From the NCBI GenBank assembly GCA_965153355.1, contig OZ231126.1, positions 14,446,001 through 14,510,000 of the forward strand: 64,000 bases of DNA. Reading direction: 5' to 3'. How positions within the stretch are numbered: the first letter of the stretch is position 1; each line of letters opens with the position of its first letter. Under the pieces are notes generated by a model. The model saw only the letters and a program-made list of their open reading frames with translations, searched no databases and was not told the origin of the DNA. Both the position numbers and the translations under genes were made by a program. This document shows, one piece after another, positions 3,664-50,423 of this stretch. Source of the stretch: Flaccisagitta enflata. Lineage: Eukaryota.

Positions 3664-4185
3664 TTTGGCGCTGTTTATGCGAAGAAAGAAGCTCAAGCTT
3701 AAAGAGCACTCAGAACACAATGCAGAACCAAGACTAACGTCAAACTTGCATGTTATGTCTGACGTTAAGCATGTATTTGTTTACTTACCCCTATTTCGCT
3801 GTGTCAGTGGCCTGAGATGATTAATGTCGAGTTACCTAGCCGTCGTCTTCACGGCAAAGAAAAAAAACCTACAAAAAAAGAAATCGGAACTGTCGAGTTT
3901 GTCATGAAGGGACTACTCGAGTATTGTACTCAAAGATTGTATCGCAATGTTTTTCCATGGTCGGAGTAATGAAATATGAATGATCAGTGATCAGTCACAT
4001 GGGAATGGATCGCCTTTGTATCAAAAACTAGAAAGGCAGAAATTCGACCTGAAGATGCGTCCTTTACCACTGCGTTGTGCTGGATGACTGCAAGTCGAAT
4101 TTCAAAAGAGACAAACTTGTTAACTTCGTTATCGATTTTCACGGTGACTCCATTCCACCCCCCCCTACTTCCTCTCATCCAGGCC

Positions 4186-7100
4186 ATGTTTCCTCGCATT
4201 CTCGGTCGAATCGTCCGTCCGCTGCGAGGTCGAGCGGAAGCCGCTTCTGTTTTCACCTCCACTTGCAACTCCAGCCACCCGTCTCGTCGTGATAGATCCC
4301 AACGTTTGCATCTGGACCGTCGGACATTTTCGACTCAACCTTCGTCTTCATTTTCCCCAACGGCGTCGTCGACGTCAACCACCGCCGCCACTTCCGGCAA
4401 CGAGGAATGCGATTCGCTGTTTGGTTTCAACGTCGCCGACGACGCCTCCACCCCTTCGCATCATGGAGAGAATGCGTCGACGAGAAAATCCGGAACTGGG
4501 ATGTCGTGGTGGAATTGCGCGCCGCGAGACGAGGAGGAAGCTATGCGATTGGAGCACGAACTTATCTCTTACTTTCAAACTAGCATCTTCAACGGCGATA
4601 TCGAGCACGCGGAAAAAGTGCTGCGGAGACAAGACAAAGAATTTGTCACCGCGGACATGTTTCACATTTTCTTGAGGACTTATATCAAACGTGGACTATG
4701 GAACGAGTTTGTCGAGTTATTGCGCCACATGGAATCGCAAAACGTATCGGTTGACATCACCGTTTATGCCTTAACTCTCGCTGCTTATGGACAATTGATG
4801 GAATCGAATTCTTCTGCCTCTGCGACACGAACTTTCCTCCACGATTCCGCGTCGTCGATGAGCTCTTCGTTAAACCTTTCTGCGATGGACGTCTTACATC
4901 GTCGCGCGTTGCTGGTCGAGGAGAAGCGTCTCATCAACGTCGCCGCTTCGATGCTTTGTCAGGACTCTCTCAACATCAATGGAGATCTGTCGTGTCAACT
5001 GGCTCGATCATTAGACTACGATTGCCCCATCGTCGATCATCTCAATGAGAAAAACGCCACGTACCCTAATCCCAATTACAGTGCGTTTGACTTGACAGAA
5101 ATGAAGTCTAAATTGGAAGAAATCTGGAGACTAGAAACACACGGACAAGTGTTTGCCGACCGAGTTGATAATTTACGCGAGGTTGACGGCGATGATTCTT
5201 CTTTAACCAATCAACGACTTCGATCGTCGACTCTTCTCAGTCTCCATCGCGAAATCTGGCGAAAATCGATCTCTGAGGCGTTAGATTGCCATTTGTCCGT
5301 TCTTAAAAAGAAACGTTTCGACGAAAACATCGTCTCTCTCCATCCTTATTTGAATTTGTTCACCGCGGAAGAGATGACCGATTTTCTCGTTAGTGAGATC
5401 GATCAAATAGTTTTGTGGACTCATCAGATGGCGTTTCCTAATCACGTCCTGGCCGCAAGAATCGGAAGAATCTTCGCCATTCGCGCCGCCGCCAAACAAC
5501 ACGCGCTTTTTGGCGACTTTGAGACATTTGAGAAAATTTATTCGCGGTATTTGGAGTTTCACGCCGCTGAGACGCGACAGGTTTGGATGACAGGATGATT
5601 TTGAAAGCCTGATCTAGCGTTTTCCAATGGTGGAAATAAGATGGGAGGGGAGCAATTATTGGGCTAAGGGATTTTGAAAGAAACGAAAAAAAAAAGAAAG
5701 TGCTAGAAATAACGACAGGTGATATCATGAAAGGACAGAGAAAAAGAGATAAAGGCCAAGTGAAGTGAAAAGAATGAAAGGGAAAAGGGGAAATAGCGAA
5801 ACGAAACAAATATAACAGAAGTGATCCAACTGTCCAACACCCTCTCTGGTCACTTTCCTTTCATCTTTCAGTTTCCAACGGAGCGTCATTTTTGGAACGC
5901 CATGCGGGAGGAGTTTCCTTTCCTCGCGGACATGGACGTTACGCTACGTTATTGGCCACAATCCGTACGTCTGGAATTCGGTCATTTGCTCTTTCACGTT
6001 GTCGTCGGGGAGGCGCTGTTCAATCCACGCCTGCTTGAAATAAACAAAAACATTGAAAAAGACGACGAAGACAACGAATTCAAGCCCGTCTTTATGATTC
6101 TCACAAAAAAGGTCAAAGCTCATCCGAAAGTGTTTCAATTGTACGACGCCGTGTCTATTCCGCAATCGCATCCTTCGACAGAGCTGCCGACGAGATTACC
6201 ACCGATGCCTTGGGTCGACGCGACCGTCAACGGTAGCGTACTCAGCGATACGGCCGTCATTCGATTCGACCGCGATGACAAGTACTCGCACGAGACGCTG
6301 TCGACGATTCGCACGAACCGATTGTTTCCCCCGCTGGATGCGCTCAATCATCTCGGCTCGAGTCCATGGACCGTTAATGAATTCGTTCTTGACGTTGCCT
6401 CGGAGGTAACCACTAACAACAAAATCACAAAATGAAGACTTCTTTTGGAGAAACCAACTTTGGAGAGCTAACACTGTCGCTCATCTCTCTCTATCTTATT
6501 TTTGATTTCTTTCTCTCTCTTATTTTCTCAGGTTTTCAATTCTGGTGGTTGTCCAGAGTTGAAAATTCCATTCACTCGCGACGTGGAAGAAAGCCGCACT
6601 TCTGGCCATTTGACTCAGTCGACTGTTACGGACAACAAGAACTGGTTTTCCGCGTTGAATAACTTATCAATCGCGCGACGAATGCGAAATCAAGTCTTTT
6701 GGCTTCCCCATCAAATGGATTACCGTGGCCGATGCACACCGACTCCGGCTTTTCTCACGCATCATGGACCCGACTTGACTCGTGGTTTGATCACGTTTGC
6801 CAATAAGAAGCCCGTCGGAGAAAAAGGTGAGGCTCGCTCGGCTGTTGGGGCTTAGGAGCTGGTCCATATGACGATTGACAATCTAAGGTTACATATCTCA
6901 CTTCTCAATACAATAACTGGTCCAGGAAATCCACTTGTCCGTTCATTTGATTGTTAATTCATTAGTTTTTCTTACCAGTTTATAAACAAATGCTCATTAA
7001 AATACGATTGTTTATCAGTTCATCGTTAAATCTCTTTACCAGTTGATCTAACTGCCAGTTATTATCTCACCGAATCAGCTGCATTTCATTTTATCATTGT

Positions 7101-9552
7101 ACCACTTCAGTTAATTGACTTATTTATTTGTGCATTTTGCCATTTTTGGGCAGCGGCCCCGAAGGGGACGAAGTCCTGTAGAACACAGGGGGACATTCGT
7201 TCGTTCGTTCGTCCGTTCGTGCGTCCCCCCCCTTATCAGGCCCCTCAGGCCTAAAATCTAGCCTCTCAGGCCTCAAATTCAGCCTCTCAGGCCTCTAATC
7301 CAGCCTCTCAGGCCTCTAATCCAGCCTCTCAGGCCTCAAATCCAGCCTCTCAGGCCTCAAATCCAGCCTCTCAGGCCTCAAATCCAGCCTCTCAGGCCTC
7401 AAATCCGGCCTCTCAGGCCTCAAATCCGACCTAGCAGGCCTCAAACCTGGCCTTTCAGACCTCAAACTAGGCCTCACAGGCCTCAAATCGAAATTCCCAT
7501 GCCTCAAACCTCTCCTCGCATGCCTCAAATAAGGCCTCAAATAAGTCCTCTCAAGCTTCCAATTGGCATTCTCATGCCTTCATAGACCTCAATTTAAGCT
7601 CTTGAAGGCCTTCAGTCAACCCTCTATGTAGCATCTCATCCGGGTAAGGCAGGACAAACGAAAGTCCCCCTGTGTTCTACAGGACTTTGTCCCCTTCGGG
7701 GCCGCTGCCCTGCTTCCCCTCACTTCAACTCACAATCACTCAAAGCAGGGCTAAGGGTATCGCTGACCATATATTGCCCTTGGGCGACCTGTTAGTTTTA
7801 GAAGTTTTTGAATCTCTCATTCATTCATTCATTCTGTTGTGATCGCTATTAAGGTCTCGATTGGTTGAAGATTCACGCCATCAACGTCGCGGGGTTGAAA
7901 AAGCAATCGTCCCTGTCCGGACGGATCGAATACGCCGACGAGATCATGGACGATATTCTCGACTCGGCTCATCGGCCGTTGGACGGCGCAGGATGGTGGA
8001 AACGAGGAGACAAACCGTGGGAGACTCTAGCCGCTTGCAAAGAGATCGCCGACGCGTTGGCGACGCCCAATTCTCAATCCTTCAAAAGCAGTCTACCAAT
8101 TCATCAAGACGGATCGTGCAACAGGTTAGAGTCCCCTCAACGCGCTGTCGTTGATGGTTTTCCATGGTCAGCTTTCCATTACATTTCACTATAAACTCCT
8201 AGTTTTCCGTAAAACTGAATCTGAAAATATTCCTTCTCAATCTAACCCAAAAGCAAACTGCTTATCTAAGGAAGTTAGCGCAATGATTGTTACCTTCATT
8301 ACCAAACGAGTTCTAAGTTCTGCTTCATATTGCGTTTTCATCATCCAGTTTACAACACTTTTCCGCCTTGGCACGGGACCAATTAGCCGGGGAATTAGTC
8401 AATCTTTGCCCGTCTGAGAGACCCAAAGATCCATATTGGGACATCGTTCGACTTCTCGAGAAAAAGAGGAAAAACGACGCCGCCCGCGGACGTCGCGAAG
8501 CTCTTATTCTCGAGGGATTCTTAGACCGGAAGATCGTGAAACGGATCGTGATGAGGGTCGGGTACGGCGCCAGTCGCAGCAGCGCCATTGGCTACGTCGA
8601 ACAATGGCTACAAGACATCGACGGCTTCCCCCGAAAACACGTTAGAAAATGTTCTCGGTATTTGGGCGTTGGGATTCTAGAATGCAACGATCATCTATTT
8701 CAGTCTACGGCGAAATTAAAGAGGTGAGGCAATCTCGAGGACAGAATCATCCAATGTAAGGTGGGTGAACTTGAGATTGATACAGGTGTCTTACCCTCAG
8801 CGTGGCCTGGCTTACCGGCTTACATTTATTTACTGGCTTTCCCAATCACGATCTATACCAGGTGGCTAACACAAATAGCAGACATCGTAACGGCCGAAAA
8901 TGGTTCCATTGTATTTTGGGAGTCGCCCTTGGGTAAGTTGATAAGCTGAGCTTGATAAATTTTTGATGTCAACTGATTAGTTTTAGATGCAAACCTACCC
9001 TGGACTGTTTAGTGTTTAGGAGATGTTTTGTTGACGTGGAAAGAAAAGCACATTGGCCTTCAGACACTGCACTAATGATGAAAACATGAAAGCTATGGGT
9101 GATACGCTCAGCAATCGGTGATGGTTCACGAGGCTCACCTCTGTATCATGCAATTATGATTATCTGTAACTAGAAATATTGTTCCGCTTGTCATTTGGAT
9201 TTCAATTTCAGGCCTTCCCGTTCATCAACCTCCGGTACCTCACATCTTCGTTCCCAACTTTATTCATTCGTTGGACGCTAGTCACATGATGCTCACCGCT
9301 CTCCACGCTCACCGCAGCGGCGTCACATTTTGCGCCGTGCACGACTGTTTCTGGACTCACGCCGGCACCGTCGAACAGATGAATGACATCTGCCGTCGTC
9401 AATTTCTCAGACTTCATAGTAGTGGTTTGTTGGAAAATCTCAGCGAGCAATGCTCGAAATTGGCCGTGATCGAGGATCGAGTTCCTCCCATTCCACCGCG
9501 TGGGACACTCGATATTGAAAGAATCACCGAAAGTTTATACTTTTTCCAGTGA
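4186..9552 (+). CDS. POLRMT: Mitochondrial single-subunit (T7-like) RNA polymerase, divergent; ~1093 aa; exons 4186-5580, 5872-6405, 6532-6826, 7854-8124, 8349-8723, 8862-8932, 9212-9552
   Basis: Arg-rich presequence, PPR-like repeats, FWLPHQMDYRGR, GLDWLKIH, KPWETLAAC, HQDGSCN (motif A), RKIVKRIVMRVGYG (motif B), PNFIHSLDASHMML, AVHDCFWTHA (motif C) and C-terminal SLYFFQ; all introns are GT-AG and the frame is preserved (3282 nt). Confidence 0.95.
7143..7793 (+). mobile_element. Helentron/DINE-like element, family C, with ~47-bp internal inverted repeat and 21-bp minisatellite
   Basis: GGGCAGCGGCCCCGAAGGGGACGAAGTCCTGTAGAACACAGGGGGAC is inverted at ~7663-7710; (CCTCTCAGGCCTCAAATCCAG)n core; 3' TTGCCCTTGGGCGACCTGTT; copies at 38480-38983 (-) and 52277-52582 (+). 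Confidence 0.75.
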
Positions 9553-9875
9553 TCGTGTTGGTTGCTTTTATTTGATGAAATCCAACGTCTTCATTGAAGC
9601 AGCATAAACTCAAGAATAAGACTCATGGGTGTTCTTCTACACTTTGTGTACTTTATTCAAGTAAATTGACTCGAAACTGTGATTGTCATTGAACCCTTGT
9701 TAACAATAGCAAACTGTTGGGCCAACAGTGTTGGCTGTCTTATTTATTCTATCTTTGTTGGTCATGCGATGGTTTTCTATCCCTCGCCATTTGTTTTATC
9801 CTTTAGAGCCAGTGATGGTTTTAACGAAGCGAGCAACAATCACCATACAAATCAGTCAAATTTAATTTGACAATC

Positions 9876-19658
<9,783 letters not shown>

Positions 19659-20271: not shown

Positions 20272-23200
20272 ATGGAGGCCAAACGGAAGGCGGACGAGAT
20301 GGCGTTGGTAGCTGTGGCCACGAAAAAGGCACGAACCGAAGCCGGGGCTCTGATGGAGGCCGTTCCCGGTGTCACGAGGACGTCAAATCTCGCGGTGAGG
20401 AATTAACATGAATAAGGGCTATAAACAGTTACGATTTATTCATGGGTGTATGGGGAGGGATGTCAGGGACGTCGGCCGACGTTCCTTTTTGTCGGACGTG
20501 CACCCCTGTCAGATTTAAGCTCATGTTAAAAAAGAAGGCCAAAAATAAAAAAAATGAAAGAAAAAGAAAACGGGAGAAGAAATGCATATTCAGGGGAAGA
20601 ATGAGAGAATATATGTGGTTTTCTAACAAATTAGGCTGTAGTTTCTTGCAGGAGAGTGTAATTTAAGATTTGAAAAGAATGAATAGGTAATAAAACCTGT
20701 CGGGCTTGAGGCTCTATCGGTTTTGAAACTGATTAACTGACAGCCCTTTGAGATTCCGCGCCATACACTTATGCCGGATTTATGACCTCTGTTGTCTTCA
20801 CTTCCATAATAAAGTTATCTCACTTAAACATATTCATCTGTGCAGGCTCCCATCATGTTGTTGATGGGCCACGAAGGAGACATTTTCTGCACCAAATTTC
20901 ACCCGGACGGCGAAATTTTGGTCTCTGGCGGCTTTGATCGAACCATTCTCGTTTGGAACGTTTACGGCGAATGTGAGAATATCGCCAAATTGACGGGACA
21001 TCACGGCGCCATCATGGACCTTCACTGGAGCAACGACGGCGATTATCTTTACACAGCTTCTACCGACAAAACGCTCGGCATCTGGGACGCTGAATACGGC
21101 GTCAAAATTAAGAAGATGAAAGGTGAATTTAAGTGGGAAGTTTCTTCAATAAGTCACTTAATCTATGTCATGTCAGTCAGTTTATATATAGATCTGTCAA
21201 TTTATCTTTCTTTAGTTTAATCTACTTGTCAGTTTATCCATCTGTCAGTCTGTCAGTTTATCAGTCTGTCAGTCTGTCAGTTTATCTAACTGTCAGTTCA
21301 TCTACCTGTCAGTTTATCTATCTGTCAGTCCGTCAGTTTATCTATGTCATTCTGTCAGTTTATCTACCTGTCAGTCTGTCAGTTTATCTATCTGTCAGTT
21401 TGTCTATCTCTTAGTCTGTTAGTTTATCTTTCTGTCATTTTATCTATCTGTCAGTTAATCTATCTGTCAGTCTTGTCAGTTTATCTTTCACTCTGTCAGT
21501 TTATCCATCCCTCTGCCAGTTTATCCATATGTCACTCTGTCAGTTTATCCATCTTTCAGACTCAGTTTATCCCTCTGTCAGTTTATCTATCAGTTTGTCT
21601 ATCTGTCAGTGACTCAGTTTGTCTATCTGTCAGTTTATCTATCTGGTTAAACGCACAACGTTGCACTTTTAACTTGTTTATATTGTCCCTTTTAGGTCAT
21701 CAATCATTCGTCAACTCCTGTCACGTGGCGCGAAGGGGTCCACAGCTCGTCTGCTCGGGCTCTGACGACGGCACCGTCATGGTTTGGGACTATCGCAAAA
21801 AATCTCCAGTGCACACTTTTCAAAATACGTATCAAGTCACCTCCGTCAGTTTCAGCGACACGGCTGAGCAAGTGTTCTCGGGAGGAATTGACAACGACGT
21901 AAAGGTTGGTCTGCTTTCACGTCCCAAGCCCCATCGTATCGTGGTAGGCCTTTACTTCCAAGAGTTAGTATTGTTGTTTCCGGCGTTTTGGTCGTCAATG
22001 TCGTTGTTGTTGACGCGTTGTCAGTCGTTTTCAGTGTTGTCGTCAGTGTTGTTGTTGTCGTCAGTGTTGTTGTTGTCGTCAGTGTTGTTGTTGTCGTCAG
22101 TGTTGTCGTCAGTGTTGTTGTCATGAGTTGTTGTCGTCAGTTGTTGGTGATGTTGTGGTTGTTGTCGTCAGTGTTGTTGTCGTCAGTGTTGTTGTCATGA
22201 GTTGTTGTCGTCAGTTGTTGGTGATGTTGTGGTTGTTGTCGTCAGTTGTTGTTAATGTTGTTGTCGTCAGTTGTTGTTGTTGTTGTCGACAGTTGTTGTT
22301 GTCGTCAGTTTTGTTGTTGTTGTCGTCAGTTTTCTTGTTGTTGTCGTCCGTTTTGTTGTTGTTGTCGTCAGTGTTGTCAGTGTTGTTGTTAGTGTTGTTG
22401 TTGTCAGTGTTGATGTTGTCAGTGATGATGTTGTCAGTGATGATGTTGTCAGTGTTGATGTTGTCAGTGTTGATGTTGTCAGTGTTGATGTTGTCAGTGT
22501 TGATGTTGTCATTGTTGATGTTGTCAGTGTTGATGTTGTCAGTGTTGATGTTGTCAGTGTTGATGTTGTCAGTGTTGATGTTGTCAGTGTTGATGTTGTC
22601 AGTGTTGATGTTGTCAGTGTTGATGTTGTCAGTGTTGATGTTGTCAGTGTTGATGTTGTCAGTGTCGATGTTGTCAGTGTCGATGTTGTCAGTGTCGATG
22701 TTGTCAGTGTCGATGTTGTCAGTGTCGATGTTGTCAGTGTCAGTGTCGATGTTGTCGGTGTCGATGTTGTCGGTGTCGATGTTTTCAGTGTCGATGATGT
22801 CAGTGTCATTGTTGTCAGTGTCGATGTTGTCAGTGTCGATGTTTTCAGTGTCGATGTTTTCAGTGTCGATGATGTCAGTGTCGTTGTTGTCAGTGTCGAT
22901 GTTGTCAGTGTCGATGTTGTCAGTGTCGATGATGTCAGTGTCGATGATGTCAGTGTCGATGATGTCAGTGTCGATGATGTCAGTGTCGATGATGTCAGTG
23001 TCGATGTTGTCAGTGTCGATGTTGTCAGTGTCGATGTTGTCAGTGTCGATGTTGTCAGTGTCGATGTTGTCAGTGTCCATGTTGTCAGTGTCGATGTTGT
23101 CAGTGTCCATGTTGTCAGTGTCCATGTTGTCAGTGTCGATGTTGTCAGTGTCGATGTTGTCAGTGTCGATGTTGTCAGTGTCGATGTTGTCAGTGTCGAT

Positions 23201-46330: not shown

Positions 46331-50423
<4,093 letters not shown>

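Follow-up and report, generated by a model that had tools for sequence, protein, structure and literature searches.

The window analysed here, a stretch of 64,000 nucleotides from Flaccisagitta enflata (contig OZ231126.1, positions 14,446,001 to 14,510,000, forward strand), contains a gene for a mitochondrial-type RNA polymerase, a member of the family of human POLRMT and T7 RNA polymerase, in which seven residues stand at the site of the specificity loop. The initial annotation of this DNA had noticed the short linker and suggested an enzyme that is catalytically competent but blind to promoters. We find that the catalytic core is intact, that the loop is truly absent, and that two further projections through which such enzymes contact the promoter or initiation factors are reduced with it. 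Coordinates below count from the first letter of the window.

Gene structure and transcripts

The gene occupies positions 4186 to 9552 of the forward strand, comprises seven exons and encodes a product of 1093 amino acids. We rebuilt its model independently of the initial annotation, from tblastn anchors and splice signals, and recovered the same intact frame: the introns are bounded by GT and AG in six cases out of six, and the sole stop is the terminal TGA. Exon 1 (4186-5580, residues 1-465) holds the start codon, an arginine-rich N-terminus and a weakly conserved N-terminal region, with the donor GT past 5580; five arginines and one acidic residue are found among the first 30 amino acids, an observation on composition only. 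The N-terminal domain, including the remnant of the intercalating hairpin, lies in exon 2 (5872-6405, residues 466-643), the thumb and the DxxGR motif in exon 3 (6532-6826, residues 644-741), the palm with motif A in exon 4 (7854-8124, residues 742-831), and the fingers with motif B in exon 5 (8349-8723, residues 832-956). Exon 6 (8862-8932, residues 957-980, donor GT at 8933) stops just short of the strand leading into the missing loop, and agrees with two transcript-derived relatives, P0002 and P0003 (numbers of this form designate the sequences fetched for comparison). Exon 7 (9212-9552, residues 981-1093 and the stop) follows an acceptor AG at 9210-9211, is coding over 9212-9549 and terminates in TGA at 9550-9552; it carries in succession the LPVHQP strand, the linker, the PNFIHSLD helix, motif C and the C-terminal YFFQ.

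Reads and contigs were mapped over positions 3900 to 9750; the labels of the runs that carry this DNA describe them as metagenomes and metatranscriptomes of marine origin. Record 8 of the DNA run X1 spans 8267-9750 with four mismatches and no gaps. Contigs from X3, an independent marine metagenome belonging to a different study, cover 8956-9267 and 9271-9750 and show no insertion or deletion in 9212-9290; they meet at 9268-9270, a spot that they leave unbridged. Transcript evidence comes from the metatranscriptome X6, in which record 17 covers 4183-4864 of exon 1 and records 18 and 19 together cover 5869-6403 of exon 2. Record 19 is spliced, joining 6181-6403, 6530-6823 and 7851-8053, and record 20 connects 8346-8721 and 9211-9530 through 72 nucleotides, the size of exon 6, and passes through exon 7 without a gap. 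Four of the six introns are thereby directly confirmed in RNA, and X6 depth is present in the bin 8800-8995 and zero over 8996-9191, a bin contained within intron 6. It is extremely improbable that the short loop is an artefact, whether of a collapsed assembly or of a gene model that omits a coding piece: the X3 contigs do end and begin inside the flagged interval, but the X1 DNA contig and X6 record 20 traverse it gap-free, an ENA genomic contig (P0001, with TGA read as tryptophan) has the same residues at the loop site, the flanking motifs lie 21 nucleotides apart in a single exon, and a linker of 7-8 residues is found in four relatives from other sources. The roughly 90 extra nucleotides that an assembly error would have concealed appear in neither reads nor cDNA.

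Variation among the mapped contigs and reads provides a view of selection. Of their differences from the window, 39 are listed and 69 further are not shown; 27 of the listed differences are coding, 15 of them synonymous and 12 non-synonymous, and from codon 600 onward 8 of those listed are synonymous and 2 non-synonymous. JGI metagenome contigs were scanned twice for coding DNA of the clade relatives described below, once with P0271 and once with alignment A3, and no relative was confirmed. In X22, a polyadenylated RNA run of the organism of which about 6% was read (12.2 million reads), no read fell on the exons, which is not proof of silence; all 1147 mapped reads lay on the intron repeat. 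The RNA runs X8 and X10-X12, which contain small shares of the sequence words, are left out of the count. Taken together, the data identify a real, spliced and selectively maintained nuclear gene and not a neutral pseudogene.

Catalytic core and promoter-contacting projections

The hallmarks of catalysis that the initial annotation had listed, motifs A, B and C, are all present. Motif A reads HQDGSCN (8102-8122, exon 4), with aspartate at the position of T7 D537; motif B reads RKIVKRIVMRVGYG (8527-8568, exon 5) and keeps the equivalents of T7 R627, K631, Y639 and G640; motif C reads VHDC (9337-9348, exon 7). The DxxGR motif is found as MDYRGR at residue 705 (exon 3), with the equivalents of T7 D421, R423 and R425 retained. 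The window protein also keeps the equivalents of T7 Y571, M635, N781, H784, D787, H811, D812 and F882, and in the alignment with T7 RNA polymerase (translated from gene 1 of NC_001604) D537, R627, K631, Y639, G640, H784, H811 and D812 are aligned and identical; the equivalent of T7 T636 is arginine throughout the clade. Against a cut-off of 22 bits, the Pfam profile RNA_pol (PF00940) matches exons 4, 5 and 7 with 119.2, 95.5 and 130.8 bits respectively. RPOL_N is matched only just, at 30.2 bits where the cut-off is 30.1, and over profile positions 193-334 only, and the best hint of a PPR repeat is weak (PPR_2, E=0.11, 13 bits), as it is in the relative P0052 (E=0.24). T7 RNA polymerase lacks the long N-terminal extension found in the window enzyme.

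For the fold we turned to the relative P0271, which is 67% identical to the window protein. Its structure, predicted with a 59-row alignment, reached a mean predicted local distance difference test score (pLDDT) of 88.5 and a predicted template modelling score (pTM) of 0.87, and superimposes on the human elongation complex (4boc_A) with a TMq of 0.93, a root-mean-square deviation of 2.7 Å and 39% identity. The right-hand polymerase fold is thus a prediction judged from P0271 rather than from the window's own spliced protein. By each core feature examined the window protein is a T7-like single-subunit RNA polymerase with its palm and fingers catalytic core intact, sharing with human POLRMT (PDB 4BOC, 6ERP, 9MN5) the family and fold, motifs A, B and C, DxxGR, the C-terminal aromatic foot and RPOL_N.

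Several projections surrounding this core engage the promoter in better studied members of the family. In T7 RNA polymerase the specificity-loop residues N748, R756 and Q758 read the T7 promoter. For the human enzyme, PMC4402542 describes the specificity loop as essential for promoter-driven transcription, with the loop-mutant data in Supplementary Figure S4 of that article, and describes an intercalating hairpin, residues 604-614, that contacts the -5 base once TFB2M is bound. A preprint (bioRxiv 10.1101/2025.04.03.647028) assigns to T1101, R1113 and K1114, at the base of the human loop, the reading of -3G and the holding of the template strand, and PMC7939475 describes contacts of the thumb with Mtf1/TFB2M. 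All three sources treat the promoter-engaging projections as conserved across the family.

Against this background the window enzyme stands out first by its specificity loop. Exon 7 codes without a break through LPVHQP (9214-9231), PVPHIFV (9232-9252, forward strand) and PNFIHSLD (9253-9276), so that the seven residues counted by the initial annotation between QP and PNFIHSLD are exactly where it placed them, and none of the seven is basic. They take the place of the loop and of its basic base. The corresponding human interval is 39 residues, P1081-P1121, and includes T1101, R1113 and K1114, while the specificity loop of T7 and its base, which span residues 739-779, are without counterpart, figures that bear out the interval of roughly 40 residues given in the initial annotation. 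When HMMER aligns the relative P0003 with chains of human POLRMT, the match splits into two stretches between which 7 residues face 38 human ones, and an alignment that includes T7 RNA polymerase likewise leaves 739-779 unmatched in the window-type enzyme. In the Pfam RNA_pol comparison P0271 is matched at 1-266 and in later stretches and exon 7 at 300-370, with about 30 profile positions between them unmatched; the predicted structure of P0271 shows two short strands at the loop site, the linker and then a long helix. A hidden coding exon in intron 6 was considered and ruled out, the flanks of the gap being only 21 nucleotides apart within exon 7, as the initial annotation had argued.

To gauge how rare this state is we aligned 315 proteins of at least 850 amino acids, namely those fetched up to P0386 together with the window model. 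P0004 was left out on account of an internal duplication; this NCBI protein, named RPO41 (1346 amino acids), repeats about 70 C-terminal residues including the PNFIHSLD and HDS motifs, which inflates its score. Loop lengths were counted from the alignment, because a regular expression that we had also applied anchored inside loops, and 310 of the 315 proteins have both loop anchors filled. The window model is the shortest of these at 7 residues; the other 309 range from 18 to 112 with a mode of 38. The next shortest, in Cyprideis torosa and in a protein of Ampulex compressa, number 18 and are followed by loops of 21 and 25 residues; a length of 25 is found in nematode-like sequences. When fragments are included, in an alignment of 264 rows, a count of 7-8 residues occurs in five rows only: the model, P0001, P0224, P0002 and P0003. 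P0167, P0179, P0108, P0160, P0214 and P0065 give 13-29 residues there but their left anchor is absent, and these short counts are probably gene-model defects. The motif KQ.N.FP right before PNF, for which the consensus of the 59-row alignment is KQKNAFPP, is kept in every row printed from outside the clade and absent from the window protein, P0224, P0002 and P0003. Judged from these alignments, the window enzyme has truly lost both the loop and its basic base, and the linker of 7-8 residues is confined to one small clade: so short a loop is not common in the family, being found in one of 310 full-length proteins.

The same element has been shortened naturally in two arthropod enzymes, that of Cyprideis torosa (A0A7R8WBT5, P0205) and one of Ampulex compressa (KAG7199578.1, P0274), whose loops number 18 residues. 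They differ from the window enzyme in keeping the KQ.NAFP base, and the Ampulex protein still has an intercalating-hairpin segment of 19 residues, against 11 in the window enzyme; the Cyprideis protein is cut short at that point. The usual animal loop measures 37-38 residues, and the alignments suggest that its length is less fixed among animals than vertebrate sequences imply.

Both the intercalating hairpin and thumb, whose reduction the initial annotation had not seen, follow the same pattern. Between the conserved P and HP, at 6088-6120 on the forward strand, the truncated hairpin segment of the window model comprises 11 residues, where the human equivalent (P604-H624) comprises 19; among the 280 proteins with both anchors, 215 have 19 residues, and the 279 others range from 17 to 59. 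An AlphaFold model of exon 2, built with 44 homologs, shows a hairpin of 4+4 residues at a local pLDDT of about 90, within a fragment of mean pLDDT 74 and pTM 0.42. The thumb segment (6571-6639, forward strand) is likewise shortened, to 23 residues, compared with 42 in human POLRMT and 34-48 in 15 other animal enzymes; it is 24 in the clade relative P0271, whose predicted structure has a single long helix (H9-42) in the thumb region. In the large alignment 307 others have thumb segments of 29-90 residues, and the window model's own anchors are unaligned there. The hairpin and thumb regions each lie within a single exon and are each covered by X6 RNA contigs.

Three projections that contact the promoter or initiation factors are therefore reduced together: the loop is deleted, the hairpin is a 4+4 stub and the thumb is some 15-20 residues shorter. 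Of the features of a canonical promoter-dependent POLRMT or Rpo41, the predicted protein fails three, namely the specificity-loop hairpin, the basic loop base and an intercalating hairpin of normal length, and the added reduction of hairpin and thumb fits an enzyme that is blind to promoters.

Relatives of the enzyme and genomic surroundings

The reduced state is common to a small clade of marine planktonic animals, whose members are environmental sequences from ENA and JGI. Closest to the model, at 97-98% identity, are P0210 and P0273; at about 80% follow P0224 and P0195, genomic fragments from ENA whose start or end falls on an intron position of the window gene. More distant are P0271 (67%), P0003 (63%), and P0002 and P0266 (60-61%), and because these are JGI contigs of about 1-1.5 kb that remain open across several window exons, we take them to derive from RNA. 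Every clade member that covers the site has a linker of 7-8 residues.

Within the clade some catalytic positions vary. The equivalent of T7 Y639, kept in the window protein, is asparagine in P0003 and P0271; that of H784 is isoleucine in P0002 and P0266 and tyrosine in P0003; and that of D787 is glutamate in P0002 and P0266. In T7 RNA polymerase, discrimination between sugars and contacts to the primer end are controlled by positions Y639 and H784. Over their first 145 and last 55 amino acids P0003 and P0271 do not differ at all, but they diverge sharply around the linker and where the following helix begins (equivalent to window 8862-9400); the site is hypervariable, or else one of the metatranscriptome contigs is a chimera.

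The closest full-length relative, a canonical one, is P0052, a protein of 1546 amino acids from a JGI contig with 42% identity over 995 aligned residues, to which P0005, P0007, P0032 and P0078 are related in turn. The loop of P0052 numbers 30 residues with a KQKNGFP base, its hairpin segment 23 and its thumb segment 44. Its best named matches, all at 44-50% identity, are insects, a nemertean, annelids and molluscs. In a quick IQ-TREE analysis of 31 rows, P0052 is sister to the model and P0271 with an SH-aLRT support of 98, the stem of the clade measures 1.78 substitutions per site, and the group formed by the clade and P0052 joins no named phylum. ENA genomic fragments of the P0052 type (P0005, P0455, P0456 and P0078) show intron read-through right before DVYSDV and then run for at least 266 residues to the stop in one exon, without introns 5 and 6 of the window gene. 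This difference in intron pattern implies either that any duplication would be old or that the two types come from different taxa.

Intron 3 of the polymerase gene contains an element resembling a miniature inverted-repeat transposable element (7148-7710), with inverted arms of 57 nucleotides at 7148-7204 and 7654-7710 that are 95% complementary and enclose a tandem array of 21-nucleotide units at 7172-7570. Its word depth reaches millions in the DNA runs, and the polyadenylated reads of X22 fall on its arms. Downstream of the polymerase gene lie a BTB-BACK-Kelch gene at 9877-19650 on the forward strand (BACK 3.7e-27, Kelch_1 7.2e-32), an SNRNP40-like WD40 gene at 20828-22000 on the same strand, and an open exon of 1018 amino acids with C-type lectin domains at 46331-49387 on the reverse strand. 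Among 123 scored candidates, the best named matches to the SNRNP40-like exon were in Daphnia magna (70%), Strigamia maritima (68%) and Ptychodera flava (68%), with Tigriopus californicus at 61%, and an Atlas search with an exon from a neighbouring gene yielded no value above 0.89. (CT)n and (CA)n microsatellites are abundant across the window, and an Rfam scan of the window returned no matches.

Possible roles of the enzyme

With the active site intact and the promoter-engaging parts gone, we expect with fair confidence that such an enzyme would extend RNA and would not find or open promoters in the canonical manner. Of the earlier proposal of a competent but promoter-blind polymerase, then, the anatomical part stands, in that the gene is intact and spliced in RNA, the catalytic residues are kept and the loop is absent; the activity itself we infer from the sequence. 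The window enzyme would still polymerise RNA, but it should be unable to recognise a duplex promoter or prise it apart as human POLRMT, yeast Rpo41 and T7 RNA polymerase do, and would initiate instead on single-stranded or pre-opened DNA, or on a primer. According to PMC7939475, mitochondrial RNA polymerases by themselves work on templates that are single-stranded or contain a bubble.

Engineered human polymerases described in PMC4402542 reproduce parts of this natural state in the laboratory, through a deletion of the hairpin tip (613-617) or a disabled loop. Those mutants, however, each alter a single element of an enzyme that depends on TFAM and TFB2M, whereas in the naturally evolving window gene three elements are reduced. 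A literature search confined to listings and to passages of articles turned up no account of the specificity loop having been lost in nature.

Our tentative reading, to which we give a little less than an even chance, is that the window enzyme is a specialised, promoter-independent polymerase working alongside a P0052-like canonical enzyme, perhaps in a primase-like role in mitochondrial DNA replication that anatomy alone brings to mind. We lean towards it because the canonical P0052 is the sister of the clade and the clade stem is long, because no exon read was found among the 12.2 million polyadenylated reads, and because the thumb is short and the equivalents of Y639 and H784, residues of fidelity, are changed in relatives. 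Several observations weigh against it. P0052 may simply belong to another lineage, a possibility to which the differing intron pattern of the P0052-type fragments adds weight, and the tree comes from a quick search in which the long rows of Cyprideis and Panagrellus are unresolved beside the group. To our knowledge almost all animals have a single POLRMT gene, which favours a sole enzyme. Expression is documented by one metatranscriptome run, X6, and the lack of reads in the polyadenylated run could also mean that the gene is poorly expressed or dispensable. Finally, listed differences at codons 148-424 number 7 synonymous and 10 non-synonymous.

The alternative that the window enzyme is the sole mitochondrial RNA polymerase of its lineage, a highly derived ortholog, is plausible, although we would put it clearly short of even. 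Promoter recognition and melting would in this case have moved to other factors, or transcription would begin at promoter-free structures such as single-stranded regions, hairpins, ends or replication intermediates. Besides the single copy usual in animals, the arginine-rich N-terminus, the long N-terminal region and the RPOL_N domain are kept as in a normal POLRMT, every catalytic residue is kept in the window protein, and the clade is conserved over 60-81% identity. The shortening of the loop has precedents in the 18 residues of Cyprideis and Ampulex and the 25 of nematode-like sequences, and an intron pattern unlike that of the P0052-type fragments is what would be expected if the latter come from other taxa. 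However, the absence of gene reads from 12.2 million polyadenylated reads would be odd for an essential housekeeping gene, and a canonical sister, P0052, does exist. Work on the T7 and yeast enzymes indicates that a shortened thumb should lower processivity, a cost that a transcriptase of genome-length templates could ill afford, and the altered Y639 or H784 equivalents of the relatives also sit poorly with a sole enzyme. That a whole clade of abundant marine zooplankton transcribes its mitochondrial DNA with a sole enzyme lacking the loop, most of the hairpin and part of the thumb we likewise regard as plausible but short of even.

A third alternative, that the gene is transcribed but its product is no longer a useful polymerase, being in slow decay or kept for a non-catalytic role, seems improbable. 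The loss of three functional elements and the very long stem branch would be in keeping with it, as would a linker region that is hypervariable between near-identical relatives, the asparagine at the Y639 position and the isoleucine or tyrosine at the H784 position in relatives, the empty polyadenylated run, and an N-terminal half in which non-synonymous differences are as many as synonymous ones. Set against these, all 1093 codons are read in one unbroken frame across six correct introns, this species keeps every catalytic residue, four or more diverged lineages have retained open frames, synonymous differences in the polymerase domain outnumber non-synonymous ones by 8 to 2, and a relative has a confidently predicted polymerase fold.

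Whether it serves as a specialised second enzyme, as we tentatively prefer, or as the only one, a natural and conserved enzyme in which all three projections are reduced and the active site is kept amounts to a ready-made minimal core of the mitochondrial RNA polymerase. As a paralog it would provide, in an animal, a case of division of labour within the mitochondrial RNA polymerase family, for example a dedicated primase. If instead it is the only copy, it would show that transcription in animal mitochondria can begin although the polymerase does not itself read the promoter, and the polymerase's own promoter recognition and melting would be dispensable in an animal.

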